38,107 nucleotides of DNA from Candidatus Altimarinota bacterium (GTDB taxonomy: Bacteria; Patescibacteriota; Gracilibacteria; BD1-5; UBA2023): the NCBI GenBank assembly GCA_043756665.1, contig JAYUQR010000045.1:1-38107 (forward strand). The letters run 5' to 3'. This document shows positions 1-36,272 of the stretch, one piece after another (positions within the stretch are counted from its first letter, which is position 1; each line of letters begins with the position of its first letter). The notes under the pieces are model-generated. The model searched no databases and was not told the origin of the DNA. It worked only from the letters and a program-made list of their open reading frames with translations. The position numbers and the translations under genes are program-made.

Positions 1-315
1 AAAAAAGAAACATGAAAAGGAAAAATGGTATTCAACTGGTTTGAATGGAAAAGAGATAGTGCAAAAGAATATAAGAAAATCCACCCTACCCAAAAACCAG
101 TAAATATCTTGAAAAAGATTATTGAGATTTTCACAGACGAATGAGATGTTATAATTGACCCCGTAGCATGATCGTGAACAACTTTACGCGCGGCGATGGA
201 ACTTAATCGGAATTCATACGGATTTGAGATAAAAAAAGAATTCTATAATTCCGCAAAAGAACACATGATAAATAAACCCGTACAAAAAGAACTACTATTA
301 TCTGATAATCTATAA
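1..315 (+). CDS. DNA methyltransferase (N6-adenine/N4-cytosine type), 3' portion; the 5' portion is at 37569..38107
   Basis: Frame 1 is open from nt 1 to TAA 313-315 when TGA=Gly. It encodes ...[52 protein letters not shown], with the HPTQKP motif and the AdoMet motif FxGSGTT. Motif glycines at 142-144, 169-171 and 175-177 are TGA codons. Confidence 0.85.
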
Positions 316-6028: not shown

Positions 6029-6262
6029 TTATTTCACAATATTAGGAATAAGAGCGATCGCCTTTGCCATAGCCTCTCCCATCTTCGCCATTACTTCTAG
6101 CCTATCCTGTTCTGAATAATCAGGATTATCGACAGAAGTGCCGAGCCAGTTAGTAAGACTATCATAGTTTGCTTTGGCATTTTCAATTCATGAATCGAGC
6201 CCATCTATCCATGATTTGATTTGTAGGGCTGTGAGTTGTTTTGGTGTAGTTTCGAGAAACAT
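6029..6262 (-). CDS. hypothetical protein (77 aa)
   Basis: ATG 6262, TAA 6029-6031 abutting the next ATG. Product MFLETTPKQLTALQIKSWIDGLDSGIENAKANYDSLTNWLGTSVDNPDYSEQDRLEVMAKMGEAMAKAIALIPNIVK. Confidence 0.6.
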
Positions 6263-25527: not shown

Positions 25528-27048
25528 TTATACTTTTCTTGCGAAGCTCCACATTTGTACATCTTTTGGCTTTATCTTGTTCTTATAGCTCACTCAGAGG
25601 TATCTGAATGCGTCACTTCAGTTTGAATTTATGTCGTGCTTTGGCTTATCCCTGAATATTCCATTCTTCTCATCGTATTCCCTTCGGTATCATGCGAGTC
25701 TGGTGAGTCCGACACTTGTTGTCTCTTCGCTAAAAAAACAGTAAGGAAACATATCTCGAACTGCATTAATCCCATCAGAGATAGAGAGCTTGGGCACTAC
25801 TTCTACCTTGCCCTTCAGATACTGTCTTGCTGTTTGTATTCTTGCTACTCCCATAGAGTATTCTGTGACCTCTGCATCGTGTGGGAGATAGTGAGTGTCG
25901 TACTTCTCATATCGAGTATTCACTATACTCATCGCTATCTCTGTAAGACCATAGCCTGATCCTTCCCAGTAATCTATAAGTCTCACTTCTCTCCCGAGTA
26001 TCTGATAGAACCATATGGCAGTCTCATCTCATCATCCTGCTCATCAGAGATCCCAGTGAGTATTTATGGGGAGTCTAGGATCATATGGGAATCTTCACAC
26101 TCTATTTTGACTTCTTGTGATTCCTAGTTCCTTCTCGTAGTACGCTCACTTGATGGCAAGGTCAAATGCCTCCTTAGGATAGCTTGGATATTCTCTGAGC
26201 ATATCTTCGTGCTGTTCCTCTCTCTTCTTCTGATACCATCTCATTTTTTTCTCAGCGAATCGTATGTCTGAGTGATTCTTCCGTATCCAGGAGTCTTGTT
26301 GTACTTTTTTGAAATATTCGCGAGTCTCGCTTGTTATTACTTCTCAGGATTCTAGCTCATATTCATCATCCAGCCACCAAGCATAGAAGTGAAACTTGTA
26401 ATCCATATCAGTGAGCTCTTTCCCCATCTCTTGGAGCTCCATTGCTTTCGTACACATATCGTAATAGTTTCCTGAGTTTCCCTCTGCCGTACTTTCTATA
26501 TCCACTTCACTTGTTGGGGCTACTGTATTGAGGGCTCCTGTCTGTATTTCTCTTGCCTTCTCTGGATACTTGTTACAGATCTTCCCGTATTCTGATATAT
26601 GGAGATGCTGAAGTGTTCCCCCCCGAAAAGAGGTATCTATCGATACAGAACAATGGTTGGATTCGAATACAAGTTCTCACTTTCGATCTGTCTTTACTTT
26701 GAAGGTATCTTTCAACCACTTCGGTAGGTTATCGAATGCGAACTTTACCTTGTCCCGGAATATAAGCTCTGCACTGTCTCGATCGTCTGCAATGATACCC
26801 ATTGATTTGTAAGAGGAGAAGAGAGCTTTGTCTAGTATCATTACATCTATGAACGTAGAAAATCCCAATTGACGAGCTTTAAGGATTATATTCTTCGTAT
26901 GTCTGTTGTGATAGTAGTGAGTCTGTTGCTTGTTTGGTATGAACGGGATTTTATTCCCTTGCTTATCTTTAATCGAATAAAGCTTTCACGAAAACAATCG
27001 CCACTCCTTATCTCCCAGATATGTCTTGATTTGTTCTAATTCGGTCAT
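25528..27048 (-). CDS. terL: terminase large subunit (506 aa)
   Basis: ATG 27048, TAA 25528-25530. ATPase motifs are NIILKARQLGFSTF (Walker A-like) and TLQHLHISEYGK. Nuclease motifs are HWDLGGAGGGDETAIWFYQ and NGSDAFRYLGV. Many motif glycines are TGA, for example 25618-25620. Confidence 0.92.
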
Positions 27049-29357: not shown

Positions 29358-30053
29358 TTAAACAACGGTTCCTCTCCTCGGTCGATTCTCTATCTCTGAC
29401 TTCTTATTGACCGCGTCATTGTATACTTGTGCATAATGCTTATACACTGTCTCTGCATTATATACCTTCCCATTCCAGAAGTCGAGCCTCGACGATATAA
29501 AAATAATCTGCTTACAGAATTCTATGCGTGACATATTCGCTTTCTCACAGATCTCTCAGAATTCTTTTCAGGAAAGTATATTTTTTGCTCGTTCCCGTTC
29601 GTATTTTCATTTCCGATAAATGAGCCCAAGGTGCTCTACTTGTCACTGTATGATTTCGAGGAGATCATTGATTTCTTCATTTCTGAATTCTTGTTGTACG
29701 ACGAGAGCTTGCTCTCATTCTTCTTTAGAAGAATTTTGATTTGAATTGACTTGGTTTGACTTGGTTTGACTTGGTTTGGTCGCACGTTTTTTTAAATCTT
29801 CTCGCCCCATAGGTCGCCCCATAGGTGCGAGATCTATTCTAAGCGGATTTCATTTTTTCGAGCTCGCTTTATTCTCAATTTGTACAGCCTCCGTCCAAAT
29901 ACTCAAAACTACCCCTCATCTCATCGATTGTTCTATGTCGATAATCTCTCCGATCGATAGCCTCATAAGAGAATCGAATACGTACGCCTTATCAGAATCG
30001 ACCATATAGGTAATCTGCATGGCGTAGTGTGTTGGGATCCGAAGTATGTCCAT
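29358..30053 (-). CDS. putative replication initiator / DNA-binding protein (231 aa) with tandem DNA repeats inside its linker-coding region
   Basis: ATG 30053, TAA 29358-29360, seven in-frame TGA. It is the first gene of the leftward module. The central low-complexity segment LAPMGRPMGREDLKKRATKPSQTKSNQVNSNQNSSKEE is encoded by the repeats at 29748..29825. The function is inferred from this architecture only. Confidence 0.65.
29748..29777. repeat. three perfect tandem 10-bp repeats (gacttggttt), iteron-like
   Basis: gacttggttt occurs at 29748, 29758 and 29768. It is preceded by degenerate tttga units, so the TTGAC cores are spaced one helical turn apart. Confidence 0.9.
29802..29825. repeat. 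two perfect tandem 12-bp repeats (tcgccccatagg)
   Basis: tcgccccatagg occurs at 29802 and 29814. An A/T-rich tract tttttttaaat (29787-29797) separates it from the 10-bp repeats. Confidence 0.9.
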
Positions 30054-30068
30054 ATATATATAAAAAAC

Positions 30069-30125
30069 TCTCGAAAACCTACTTCTGGGGGAATTTTGCG
30101 ATACGCCCAGGGCAGGTTTTCGAGA
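30069..30125. promoter_or_regulatory. 12-bp inverted repeat with nested 5-bp repeat, just upstream of the initiator-like gene
   Basis: tctcgaaaacct (30069-30080) is complementary to aggttttcgaga (30114-30125). Nested inside are ctggg (30085-30089) and cccag (30106-30110). The element lies 16 nt from ATG 30053. Confidence 0.6.
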
Positions 30126-30880
30126 ATTGTTTAGTTTGCAAAATTCACTTACCGTATCGCACCCCTATTCTATCCCTTTCCCAATATAAAGCAAATATTT
30201 TGTAGTGGCTTAGTAATTGTAGAGAAAATAATCTTATTTATACTACTGTTCTGTCTAGAATTAGACGTTGATGGATATTGGAAGATTCCTTGATATAAAA
30301 AACTCTCTATTACTAGAGAGAAACTATCACGATACTTCATACTATCAACAAGAGAGTATTCGTCTGTTATGCTGACGAGTGAGAAATATACAAGCTCACC
30401 GATTGATTTGATTATACAGGCGAGATCTTTTTTTATTTCTGTGACCTATTCTATTATATGAGTTTTATCAGAGAAAGAAATAGATATATTCCTAAGGTTC
30501 TTGAATCCCTTTAGATGCCTTCCCTCTGGTATCATCTTACAAGATATCATATAAAATAGAGTACTATATAATATCATTCTTGTTCACTTTATGTGTACGA
30601 TTATCGCAGTGTATATTTTATGTGATGGCTTTATAGAGCCTTTTCATATACTTTATTCAAAATAAACTTGCGATAAAAGAAAATAAGAATATACTTGTTT
30701 TACGTTCAGCACAACATTCGGTACACGCTACTCCTCGAGAGAGAATGAAGACCGAAAAGGAACTCACAAGAAACAACTCAAAAATAGTTTCTCTCATATA
30801 TAGGACTTTCTGCATGTCGGATATATAGTCGCTATCGAGAGAGACTAGAACTTGAGAAATCAAGTAAAGACGCCCTAGCC

Positions 30881-30886
30881 TATAAT
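30881..30886 (+). promoter_or_regulatory. -10-like TATAAT box immediately upstream of the structured RNA candidate
   Basis: A perfect TATAAT sits at 30881-30886. No convincing -35 element lies at 16-18 nt spacing. Confidence 0.3.
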
Positions 30887-30887
30887 T

Positions 30888-31029
30888 AGGGTGAAGTGGT
30901 GGCGGAATAGATAACGCACTGTACTTCTCGCAGGGCGGGTAAGCCACGAGCGATTAGAGATTTATAAAACCTGTTATTGCAAGGTGACTATACGAGTATC
31001 TCTCGGCAAATCCTTGCCCACTTCACTCT
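30888..31029 (+). ncRNA. structured RNA candidate (~140 nt), class unknown
   Basis: A 12-bp closing helix pairs agggtgaagtgg (30888-30899) with ccacttcactct (31018-31029, one G-U). Internal helices are gtggc/gccac, cgcactg/cagggcg, gcaagg/ccttgc and cgag/ctcg. A T6 run follows at 31039-31044. No plausible ORF covers it. Confidence 0.45.
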
Positions 31030-31126
31030 ATTTATAACTTTTTTCTATATGAACGAATACGAACTCTTCCGCAGGTATGAACAAGAACGGGAATATTTTG
31101 AGCGAGATCCTGAATAGTCAGTATAT

Positions 31127-31216
31127 GGTGACTATGGTGTAATAGTAGCACACACTCTACTTTAGTCCTGAGTGGGAGAGCCGACGGGCAAGTAGGTGTA
31201 AATCCTACAGTCACTG
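31127..31216 (+). ncRNA. tRNA-like element (type-II-like cloverleaf with irregular anticodon loop)
   Basis: The acceptor stem pairs GGTGACT (31127-31133) with AGTCACT (31209-31215), with G1-U72. The D-stem has 3 bp. The T-arm is GTAGG-TGTAAAT-CCTAC (31192-31208). A long variable arm has a GCC/GGC stem. The anticodon stem CACTC/GAGTG encloses 12 nt (TACTTTAGTCCT) instead of 7. A T6 run follows at 31220-31225. Confidence 0.35.
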
Positions 31217-31240
31217 ACATTTTTTAACCTTTCTTAAAGT

Positions 31241-31438
31241 ATGACAATTCTCGAATCAAACATCTGCACTATCTGTGAATGATATAAATCGAACGAAATA
31301 GAGGCACTTATATCTGAGCTTCAGATGATTGCCGATCGAAAGTATTCCGAGGAGGAAAACTATATTCCCTCTGAAGTAAAATACAGTCTTCCCGAGATAG
31401 ATTCGTCACTTGCTAGATTATCTCTCTATCAACAATAA
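31241..31438 (+). CDS. hypothetical protein (65 aa), first rightward gene
   Basis: ATG 31241, TAA 31436-31438. Product MTILESNICTICEGYKSNEIEALISELQMIADRKYSEEENYIPSEVKYSLPEIDSSLARLSLYQQ. Confidence 0.55.
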
Positions 31439-34235: not shown

Positions 34236-34445
34236 ATGCCCCCATCACTCCCCCCTCCAAAGTCTCACGCTGAACAGATAGCAGACTCACTCTACCAAGC
34301 TCGAAGGTTCGATGACCTTCCCCAGTCTATCCAGCTCGTACGAGTGAATTGACAGGTGATGCGATGAGAGCTCTCGAATGCTGATGGCATGCGAAAGATA
34401 GTACAGATACGAGCGAGGTTCAATTGAATCATTTTAGATATTTAA
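34236..34445 (+). CDS. hypothetical protein (69 aa)
   Basis: ATG 34236, TAA 34443-34445. Product MPPSLPPPKSHAEQIADSLYQARRFDDLPQSIQLVRVNGQVMRGELSNADGMRKIVQIRARFNGIILDI. Its last ~13 codons belong to the duplicated block. Confidence 0.55.
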
Positions 34446-34518
34446 TTTTATATATATGACAATACAAGATATTAGTTCTGGTTCTGGTGATGGTTTTGGT
34501 GATGGTTCTGGTTCTGGT
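34406..34518 (+). repeat. duplicated block, copy A (upstream region plus first 21 codons of the Gly-X gene)
   Basis: The 113 nt starting gatacgagcgaggttc...tttaattttatatatATGacaatacaagatattagttct... recur at 35132..35244. The only difference is the 8-nt patch aattgaat versus gaggggat. Confidence 0.9.
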
Positions 34519-34725
34519 TCTGGTTTTGGTGATGGTTTTGGTTCTGGTTCTGGTTATGGTTCTGGTTCTGGTTCTGGTTATGGTTCTGGTTATGGTGATG
34601 GTTTTGGTGATGGTTCTGGTGATGGTTCTGGTTCTGGTTCTGGTTCTGGTTTTGGTGATGGTTCTGGTTCTGGTTATGGTTCTGGTTCTGGTTATGGTTA
34701 CAGAAATTCGGTTACTATTATTTAA
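34456..34725 (+). CDS. (Gly-X)n repeat protein, 89 aa (X = Ser/Asp/Phe/Tyr)
   Basis: Product MTIQDISS + 36 perfect G-X dipeptides + G + YRNSVTII; TAA stop. It has the same AT-rich start context as neighbouring genes. Conserved non-repeat N- and C-termini are shared with the paralog at 35182..35391. Confidence 0.65.
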   Translation: MTIQDISSGSGDGFGDGSGSGSGFGDGFGSGSGYGSGSGSGYGSGYGDGFGDGSGDGSGSGSGSGFGDGSGSGYGSGSGYGYRNSVTII

Positions 34726-34736
34726 ATTTTATATAT

Positions 34737-35129
34737 ATGGAAAGGGAAGTTATTTTGAAACTTATTGAAATGCTTATAAATTCAGACTCTATCTTTATAG
34801 ATAGATGTCATACTACTGACGATAAACAATATCCTATCTGACAGAAAATAATTCTTCGAGGTGCTGATTGTGGTAGTCTCTATGGAACACTTATTTCTGT
34901 TACCAATTGAGTCTATCGAATGAAAGACTCCAGAAGACTTTGGTACTGGAAATGCAAGAAATGATTTACCCTGGATGATGTGGCGAACTTTGGACTTAAT
35001 GAGAACTCAAAAGTAACTTCCACTGTGCCACTTTGTGATGTAACTGATAGCCGTGTATCACTTCTTATCCCCTGTTCTGATAAAGCGATTAAAAGTATAG
35101 AGTCACTTCCTGATTATCAGCCTAGTTAG
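34737..35129 (+). CDS. hypothetical protein (130 aa) between the two Gly-X genes
   Basis: ATG 34737, TAG 35127-35129, three in-frame TGA. Product MEREVILKLIEMLINSDSIFIDRCHTTDDKQYPIGQKIILRGADCGSLYGTLISVTNGVYRMKDSRRLWYWKCKKGFTLDDVANFG... Confidence 0.65.
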
Positions 35130-35131
35130 TT

Positions 35132-35244
35132 GATACGAGCGAGGTTCGAGGGGATCATTTTAGATATTTAATTTTATATATATGACAATACAAGATATTA
35201 GTTCTGGTTCTGGTGATGGTTTTGGTGATGGTTCTGGTTCTGGT
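35132..35244 (+). repeat. duplicated block, copy B
   Basis: See copy A at 34406..34518; the offset is 726 nt. A second shared block (ggttacagaaattcggttactattatttaaattttatatatatg) lies at 34696..34739 and 35362..35405. Confidence 0.9.
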
Positions 35245-35897: not shown

Positions 35898-36272
35898 ATG
35901 TACATCTTCGACCTCGATGGCACGCTTGCCGATATACGTGAGAATAGAAAACTCCCCCCATGAAAAGCAATTATTCACAATGTAGTTTTATATAGGCAAT
36001 TAGCAGAGAAATACGAGTGTATAATTGTCTCAGGGAGAGACAAAAAACAACGAAGTATGGTATTCGATTTTTTACGATGAATATTTTTTAGTGGTAGGAT
36101 AATCCTCAACGACCTCCCTTTCCCCAAGCCACCGAACCACGAATTCAAAAGAATAGTATTCCAAAATCTTCTGGATGAGTGAGAAACCATCGACTGAGTA
36201 TTTGATGACAATCCCAAGGTTGGTGATGTATGTCGAGACCTCTGAATTCCGTTTTATCTTGTTAGCCAATAA
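35898..36272 (+). CDS. HAD-superfamily phosphatase-like protein (124 aa)
   Basis: Product MYIFDLDGTLADIRENRKL... (motif I DxDGT), ...IIVSGRDKK..., ...GVFDDNPKV (acidic motif). ATG 35898, TAA 36270-36272. Confidence 0.7.

Follow-up and report, generated by a model that had tools for sequence, protein, structure and literature searches.

The locus examined here raises the question of what kind of element E1 is. E1 is a segment of about 140 nt that is predicted to fold on the plus strand between two divergent gene modules. The window is the whole stretch of DNA that was analyzed (positions 1-38107, 38,107 nt in length) and is a phage-like genome. The window uses genetic code 25, in which TGA encodes glycine. 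The longest ORF is no more than 294 aa under table 11 and up to 1368 aa when TGA is read as sense. TGA was found at conserved glycine sites of two N6/N4 methylases, e.g., in DPPY-x-T and A-x-S-G-TT, and accounts for 5.6% of the codons in a 1297-aa ORF. TAA ends 45 of the 58 predicted genes, and ORFs on the early strand are at most 246 aa long. Relatives of the terminase were binned in MAGs of Candidatus Peribacteria and Gracilibacteria. An exact-sequence look-up of two proteins from the window returned no record. The window encodes no canonical tRNA, and tRNA-Gly(UCA) is likewise absent, so the host must supply decoding. The genome frame is as follows:

About 30053 down to about 2650, minus strand: late/structural module, including terminase, portal and capsid
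25528-27048, minus strand: terminase, part of the late module
30054-31240: divergent gap
From 31241, plus strand: early module, including Erf, a PNKP-type phosphatase and methylases
31241-31438, plus strand: first early ORF

When read with code 25, no other stretch free of credible ORFs is as long as the gap. It is non-coding only under this code, as the entire window appears non-coding under table 11. The initial annotation had described it as the largest non-coding stretch between the divergent modules, which is correct with TGA as sense but not under table 11.

A number of other features were observed in the window. No Shine-Dalgarno-like motif precedes the predicted genes at any gene start in the window; a TAATATG or ATAATATG context is present at many of them. 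The first ORF (25-315, plus strand) matches only positions 151-221, the C-terminal third, of an N6_N4 methylase profile. The gene probably spans the window ends, in which case the contig would be a circularly permuted complete genome. The product of the early gene at 35898-36272 (plus strand) is a HAD phosphatase of 124 aa that belongs to the polynucleotide kinase/phosphatase type (PF25109; phrog_415), and no kinase or ligase partner for it was found among the products scanned. An ORF at 34364-34804 (plus strand) consists almost entirely of LV/MV repeats and mirrors a short DNA tandem repeat of GTTCTGGTT-like units. The ATGs at 34737 and 35403 are preceded by the same 25-nt sequence, ttactattatttaaattttatatat (one copy near ~35216-35240, plus strand). 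On the minus strand two hairpins, at 30058-30136 and 30303-30320, are each followed by U6. Each lies within a repeated ATATAAAAAACTCTC context (30058 and 30293), and the second stops just ahead of the first late-strand ATG at 30053. The pair have the appearance of terminators or attenuators arranged in tandem in the late-operon leader.

E1 is located in the second half of the gap. Its parts are listed below, with names based on the comparison to tRNA given further on:

30881-31045, plus strand: E1, folded segment of ~140 nt
30881-30899, plus strand: 5' arm of the closing helix, with TATAAT (30881-30886), the homologue of the acceptor 5' strand GGUGAAG (30890-30896) and inner pairs (30897-30899)
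30897-30919, plus strand: D-arm homologue, UG followed by GUG(GCG)-GAAUAGAUAA-(CG)CAC, aligning to the D arms of phage tRNA-Leu and E2
30919-30933, plus strand: anticodon-arm homologue, predicted CUG/CAG stem with a 9-nt loop UACUUCUCG at 30922-30930
30934-30977, plus strand: remnant of variable arm and T arm, by alignment to E2
30978-31017, plus strand: segment of ~40 nt with no tRNA counterpart and with two small hairpins
30993-31005, plus strand: hairpin CGAG-UAUCU-CUCG
31006-31017, plus strand: hairpin GCAA-AUCC-UUGC, which retains AAAUCCU from a T arm
31018-31036, plus strand: 3' arm of the closing helix, with the homologue of the acceptor 3' strand CUUCACU (31021-31027)
31039-31044, plus strand: U6 run, beginning 3 nt past the extended helix

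The minimum-free-energy fold of E1 was -46.6 kcal/mol (z = -2.67) and none of 200 shuffles was as stable. The fold contains several small internal hairpins, in agreement with the internal helices proposed in the initial annotation, and the positions given there for TATAAT and for the T6 run were both verified. The domain and its helix were unchanged when 358 nt were folded together. A helix of 12 bp had been described as closing the segment. It is present (30888-30899 with 31018-31029; 11 Watson-Crick pairs and one G-U pair), but the real closing helix is longer, spanning 19 positions (30881-30899 with 31018-31036) with one mismatch as an inverted repeat of 89% complementarity. A contiguous helix of 12 pairs is also expected by chance in a 1.2-kb A+T-rich gap, the median of 100 shuffles being 12. 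The moderate z of the E1 fold is in large part attributable to a single helix whose length is common by chance. The reverse strand of E1 was less stable (z = -2.35). A minus-strand RNA was rejected on this weaker fold, on the G-U pairs becoming C-A mismatches and on the lack of a U run. E1 is taken to be a plus-strand RNA because the G-U pairs and U runs fit only that strand.

The TATAAT had been proposed as a promoter. This claim was not supported: there are 77 copies of TATAAT in the window, the E1 copy has no -35 partner at normal spacing and, since the closing helix extends to 30881, the hexamer is paired within the helix. E1 was not called in a scan for consensus terminators due to the 3-8 nt loop limit of that scan, and its U6 lies 3 nt past the 19-position helix. 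Two ORFs overlap E1, one of 109 aa on the minus strand (30618-30947) and one of 46 aa on the plus strand (30977-31117). Both are of implausible composition, and the initial annotation had called the overlapping ORFs short or implausible. A protein-coding reading of E1 was rejected on the composition of its ORFs, and the neighboring products had no relevant family matches. A 22-codon ORF (MNEYELFRRYEQEREYFERDPE; 31051-31119, plus strand) lies exactly between E1 and E2. It may encode a leader peptide or have arisen by chance.

E2 lies downstream of E1 and immediately precedes the early module. Its features are:

31127-31219, plus strand: E2, paralogous class-II tRNA-like gene (covariance-model match and predicted fold)
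31127-33 / 31209-15, plus strand: acceptor stem, with G1-U72
3 nt, plus strand: acceptor-to-D linker, with one base extra
31137-51, plus strand: D arm
31153-57 / 31170-74, plus strand: anticodon-like stem of 5 bp with a 12-nt loop (31158-69)
31180-89, plus strand: variable hairpin
31192-31208, plus strand: T arm, GUAGG-UGUAAAU-CCUAC
31220-31225, plus strand: U6 run, with its end 16 nt from the start of the first early ORF (31241-31438)

A covariance model (R1) was built from 32 phage class-II tRNA-Leu genes on the standard cloverleaf and the whole window was searched with filters off. E2 was the only significant match in the window, with 29.6 bits (E 2e-5) over the full length of the model (positions 1-86). 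All seven pairs of its acceptor stem are standard, its T arm has the normal 5-bp stem and 7-nt loop, and its best matches outside the T arm are class-II tRNA-Leu genes. On this alignment E2 has a cloverleaf of the tRNA-Leu type. It deviates from a normal tRNA in a number of ways. T-loop position 56 is U instead of C and the 3' end has a G discriminator followed by ACA, with no CCA encoded. The 12-nt loop, UACUUUAGUCCU, is accommodated in R1 by an 11-nt insertion in the anticodon arm. E2 was not called by ARAGORN and had no Rfam match even at E <= 10 (30880-31232).

The T arm of E2 is identical at 16 of 17 positions to that of a phage tRNA-Tyr in a related locus (L008; GUAGG-UGCAAAU-CCUAC). T arms of the form GUAGG-UGYAAAU-CCUAC, with G at 55 where U is usual, were found in at least 120 IMG/VR contigs (L019-L138) in tRNAs of many specificities, and ARAGORN called a tRNA at only 46 of those 120 sites. 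As this T arm is widespread in phage tRNAs, it marks tRNA ancestry and not the amino acid.

E1 was compared to E2 by local alignment. The score was 43, compared to 19.7 ± 3.7 for dinucleotide shuffles (z ~6), and none of 2000 shuffles reached 43. E1 and E2 are thus homologous by alignment and are paralogues, with E2 240 nt downstream. Two related structured elements are present on the plus strand, in agreement with the relatedness proposed in the initial annotation. The first ~35 nt of E1 align to the acceptor, D-arm and anticodon-stem positions of tRNA-Leu, and GGUGAAGUGGUG of E1 agrees with a phage tRNA-Leu(GAG) at 11 of 12 positions. A profile of E1 and E2 was searched against 1.8 Mb of fetched DNA, and the top matches other than themselves were tRNA-Leu genes, albeit weak (E 0.6-8). 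Further along, E1 GGGUAAGCC-ACGA-GCG aligns to E2 GGGAGAGCC-GACG-GGC, and E1 UUAGAGAUUUAUAAAACCUGU aligns to the T arm GUAGGUGUAAAUCCUAC, which can no longer be formed in E1. GGTGACTAT of E1 (30983-30991) repeats the opening 9 nt of E2 without change. Together with the hairpin containing AAAUCCU, this looks like a partial third copy.

The acceptor frame of E1 (30890-96 with 31021-27) has seven standard pairs out of seven, G1-U72 included. Compared to E2, five pairs are identical, two are doubly compensated (A-U to C-G and G-C to U-A) and none is broken. The anticodon-type stem shows one further double compensation, CUG/CAG in E1 and CUC/GAG in E2. This compensatory-change evidence is that of one comparison of paralogues within the window, and the compensations could be the legacy of an earlier period in which E1 and E2 both functioned as tRNAs. 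Beyond the tRNA frame, three further inner pairs (30897-30899) are present in E1. The closing helix also outgrows the frame by nine outer positions, of which eight are paired (P ~0.004, random 9-mers from the gap).

Against R1, E1 scored 5.3 bits (E 0.1 in a 181-nt search) with all five T-stem pairs non-standard. Due to this score, compared to 29.6 for E2, E1 is classed as derived from class-II tRNA-Leu and not as a member. Its anticodon-type stem is 3 bp (6 with one mismatch) with a 9-nt loop, and R1 requires a 28-nt insertion there. Neither E1 nor E2 has the 5-bp stem and 7-nt loop with U33 of a tRNA anticodon arm. The stretch of E1 homologous to the T arm, 30956-30977, cannot pair, and the hairpin adjoining the acceptor has a 4-nt loop. 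The 3' end of E1 is C-UAU, with no CCA encoded. E1 is judged unable to decode, since the T arm is absent and the strands of the D stem and anticodon stem overlap. The loops beginning TACTT, to which the initial annotation had drawn attention, are common to both elements and correspond to positions 30-34 of the ancestral anticodon arm. As an enlarged loop beginning UACUU is common to E1 and E2, the enlargement probably predates the duplication, an argument for maintenance of the enlarged-loop form itself.

Neither E1 nor E2 reached the Rfam RF00005 threshold or was called by a tRNA finder, and no tmRNA was detected by ARAGORN or Rfam. The Rfam scans (gathering score, and E <= 10 on a 353-nt stretch) returned no match, and ARAGORN called 0 genes across the whole window. 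The initial statement that E1 fits no RNA family is correct as regards curated families, but E1 is not unclassifiable, as its derivation from class-II tRNA-Leu can be traced. The origin of E1 as a rearranged paralogue of a class-II tRNA-Leu-type gene is well supported at the sequence level.

To find relatives, ~170 loci were searched, comprising 12 contigs with terminase homologues (66-88% identity; L004-L015), 80 Erf-linked metagenome loci (L145-L224) and 80 genome loci (L225-L304). Pattern scans built from blocks shared by E1 and E2 were run on IMG/VR, JGI metagenomes and GTDB genomes. Neither the ~170 loci (blastn, nhmmer and the E1/E2 profile) nor the pattern scans yielded an orthologue of either element, and no orthologues with compensatory changes, as expected of a conserved family, were present in these loci or the collection-wide scans. 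The matches from the pattern scans (3 in one scan and 13 in another) were rejected as coding sequence or ordinary tRNAs. An initial search for related loci gave only distant high-G+C phages, and blastn of the gap against GenBank phages gave no relative. Even in the closest phage, L004, whose terminase is 88% identical, the sequence of the divergent gap is unrelated. So far, E1 and E2 appear unique to one genome. A 55-nt mini-cloverleaf was observed in the divergent gap of L004 (~6200-6255, minus strand).

The TGA-recoded relatives carry several tRNA-type genes with normal acceptor and T arms and abnormal anticodon arms:

L006:2811-2871: 61-nt form, anticodon arm absent
L159:3627-3699: 5-nt anticodon loop
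L014:5414-5491: aberrant middle region

An element at L159:11272-11379 also belongs to this set, in which the abnormalities extend to a greatly enlarged anticodon region. The closest Erf relatives, L146 and L148 (65% identity), are TGA-recoded. In both, an 89-nt class-II tRNA lies directly after erf (L146:1956-2045 and L148:1158-1247), with an 8-bp acceptor, a 3-nt linker, the anticodon CAU and ACA in place of CCA. Its unusual cloverleaf resembles the allo-tRNA type. A tRNA-Met in L005 and the class-II tRNA-Tyr in L008 were found by Rfam and missed by ARAGORN. As ARAGORN misses these and E2, phage tRNA counts in the code-25 group are too low.

The flanks of these genes were compared to those of E2 (31123-31126 and 31216-31219). 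ATAT occupies positions -4 to -1 in six of nine tRNA or tRNA-like genes, E2 included, compared to a background of 1.5% (post-hoc P ~1e-9 for a non-systematic set that includes genes of L005, L006, L008, L014 and L159). N-ACA or N-CAA replaces N-CCA at the 3' end of several such genes. The ATAT and N-ACA flanks may be a shared processing or expression signal. A strict scan for such genes gave 10 matches compared to 2 in reversed controls, and most of the matches were ordinary tRNAs.

It is conceivable, if doubtful, that TGA-recoded phages of the Gracilibacteria/Absconditabacteria type have a previously undescribed habit of carrying non-decoding tRNA mimics, E1 and E2 among them, in which the top half (acceptor and T arm) and the ATAT and N-ACA flanks are kept, with E1 as a further-derived transcript end. 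In such mimics the anticodon arm would be enlarged, shrunken or deleted. The RNAs would act through the tRNA-processing or tRNA-binding machinery, as transcript-processing signals or decoys, and not in decoding. Besides E1 and E2, the candidates are L006:2811-2871, L159:3627-3699, L014:5414-5491 and L146:1956-2045. If confirmed, the pattern would point to phages of candidate-phyla bacteria employing the tRNA scaffold independently of translation.

The best explanation, to which we give a probability of roughly 0.55, is that E1 is a rearranged, non-decoding derivative of a phage class-II tRNA-Leu-type gene, paralogous to E2, and probably reused as a terminator or leader. A phage class-II tRNA-Leu-type gene would have been duplicated, after which one copy, E1, was rearranged, lost its T arm and gained ~40 nt. 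It would no longer be a substrate for translation, and selection would now maintain the 19-position closing helix and U6. Because the long closing helix with its U run appears maintained, a structural role on a plus-strand transcript is favored. E1 would provide that transcript with a terminator or a stable 3' end, or would form a leader module preceding the early genes. The array of E1 and E2 would have the regulatory half of the gap on one side and the early operon on the other. The distance of 16 nt from the end of the E2 U run to the first early ORF means that early transcripts have to originate within the array or pass through it. This proposal is at its weakest in the terminator or leader role, and the multi-branched domain of E1 is unlike a typical intrinsic terminator. 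On the best reading E1 would be a tRNA-derived element of a known kind and not a new RNA family, and a relic reused as a structured transcript end is more likely than a new RNA class.

The main rival to a structural role is that E1 is a plain relic, a functionless tRNA pseudogene that arose by tandem duplication and illegitimate recombination and is decaying in a tolerant gap. The fold would then be the leftover of an ancestral acceptor stem together with chance hairpins. This account is possible, though less probable than reuse. The destroyed T arm, the overlap of D-stem and anticodon-stem strands and the partial third copy all favor it, and no orthologue was found in the related phages or collections searched. 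Helices of 12 pairs are common by chance in the gap. Single tRNA genes also occur in comparable gaps of related phages, indicating that gain and loss of such genes is frequent. However, the eight extra pairs among nine outer positions (P ~0.004) are followed by U6, as is E2, and the acceptor frame has no broken pair despite heavy divergence elsewhere. Phage genomes of 38 kb seldom retain 140 nt of inert DNA, which also weighs against a relic.

An improbable reading is that of E1 as a small RNA or tRNA mimic that stands alone, acts in trans and is expressed from a promoter of its own, serving, e.g., as a decoy for host defenses or for host enzymes that target tRNA, or as a regulator through its UACUUCUCG loop. 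The TATAAT is 3-7 nt upstream of either possible acceptor start of E1 and U6 lies downstream, but the hexamer is too frequent in the window, unpartnered and paired in the helix, as described above. The domain is stable and independent in the longer fold; no conservation was found. E2 has the ATAT 5' flank and N-ACA 3' flank common to related tRNA and tRNA-like genes of recoded phages, suggesting expression and processing, whereas E1 lacks both the ATAT flank and the T arm that tRNA-processing enzymes recognize. The PNKP-type phosphatase gene in the early region would fit an RNA of this kind. The phage genes have no Shine-Dalgarno motif for a pyrimidine-rich loop to mask, and an anti-Shine-Dalgarno loop was rejected on the same ground. 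Highly improbable is the explanation that the tRNA-like sequences are an attP carrying part of a host tRNA gene, or a product of imprecise excision. Temperate phages commonly use tRNA genes as integration sites and carry the 3' portion of such a gene, and terminase relatives are found on MAG contigs of the Gracilibacteria type. An attP core would contain the 3' part only, however, while the sequences here include both acceptor strands as well as the 5' half of the tRNA. Among the 24 different products scanned there was no integrase-sized ORF and no predicted recombinase domain, and no identical host tRNA was found.

Other candidates were rejected. A suppressor tRNA does not fit, as the window has no canonical tRNA and neither E1 nor E2 has a UCA anticodon. 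E2 was also considered as an ochre suppressor (loop CU-UUA-GU by homology) and dismissed, as TAA is the usual stop codon of the predicted genes and the loop is 12 nt. A retron, CRISPR or guide RNA was discounted because no reverse transcriptase, Cas, TnpB or IscB domain was found among the 24 different products scanned, and no CRISPR-like or retron repeats were present in the window.

If the preferred reading of E1 as a reused tRNA derivative holds, it would be an example of a phage tRNA gene that was duplicated, stripped of decoding and reused as an RNA structure in a regulatory gap. Such reuse is useful for annotation and unsurprising.

E1 and E2 were compared to known systems. E1 resembles class-II tRNA-Leu in the acceptor 5' strand, the UG linker, the D stem GUG/CAC, the AAUAG-type D loop and C32-U33-U34 at the start of the loop, and E2 aligns end to end with the covariance model of 32 phage genes. 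The anticodon loop is 7 nt in class-II tRNA-Leu compared to 9 nt in E1 and 12 nt in E2. E2 further differs in its 3-nt linker, G discriminator, ACA for CCA and U at T-loop position 56, and E1 in having no T arm and ~40 extra nt. Species 1 and 2 of phage T4 (rnaC and rnaD) are stable RNAs of ~120-140 nt by the tRNA genes, with partially tRNA-like ends and no known function. By description they are like E1 in size and in their tRNA-like ends; they lie inside a genuine tRNA cluster, whereas the window has no canonical tRNA. The tRNA-Other of Bacillus cereus is a chromosomal pseudo-tRNA with a recognizable cloverleaf (PMC3399842). Like such pseudo-tRNAs, E1 appears tRNA-derived, does not fit the decoding cloverleaf and is retained in the genome. 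Unlike tRNA-Other, it is rearranged, is located in a regulatory gap of a phage and has a closing helix that is extended and followed by a U run. Candidate tRNA-like structured RNAs from phage metagenomes are defined by recurrence and covariation across many contigs (PMC10690425). They share with E1 and E2 a phage-encoded tRNA-like fold outside the standard models, and differ in being known from many contigs compared to, so far, one genome. Rho-independent terminators, defined by a G+C-rich hairpin with a U run directly after it on the transcribed strand, are similar to E1 in that a stable predicted helix of E1 is followed by a U run on what would be the transcribed strand, at the end of a short unit upstream of an operon. 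They differ in that the helix of E1 closes a multi-branched domain of 118 nt, with the U run beginning 3 nt later.
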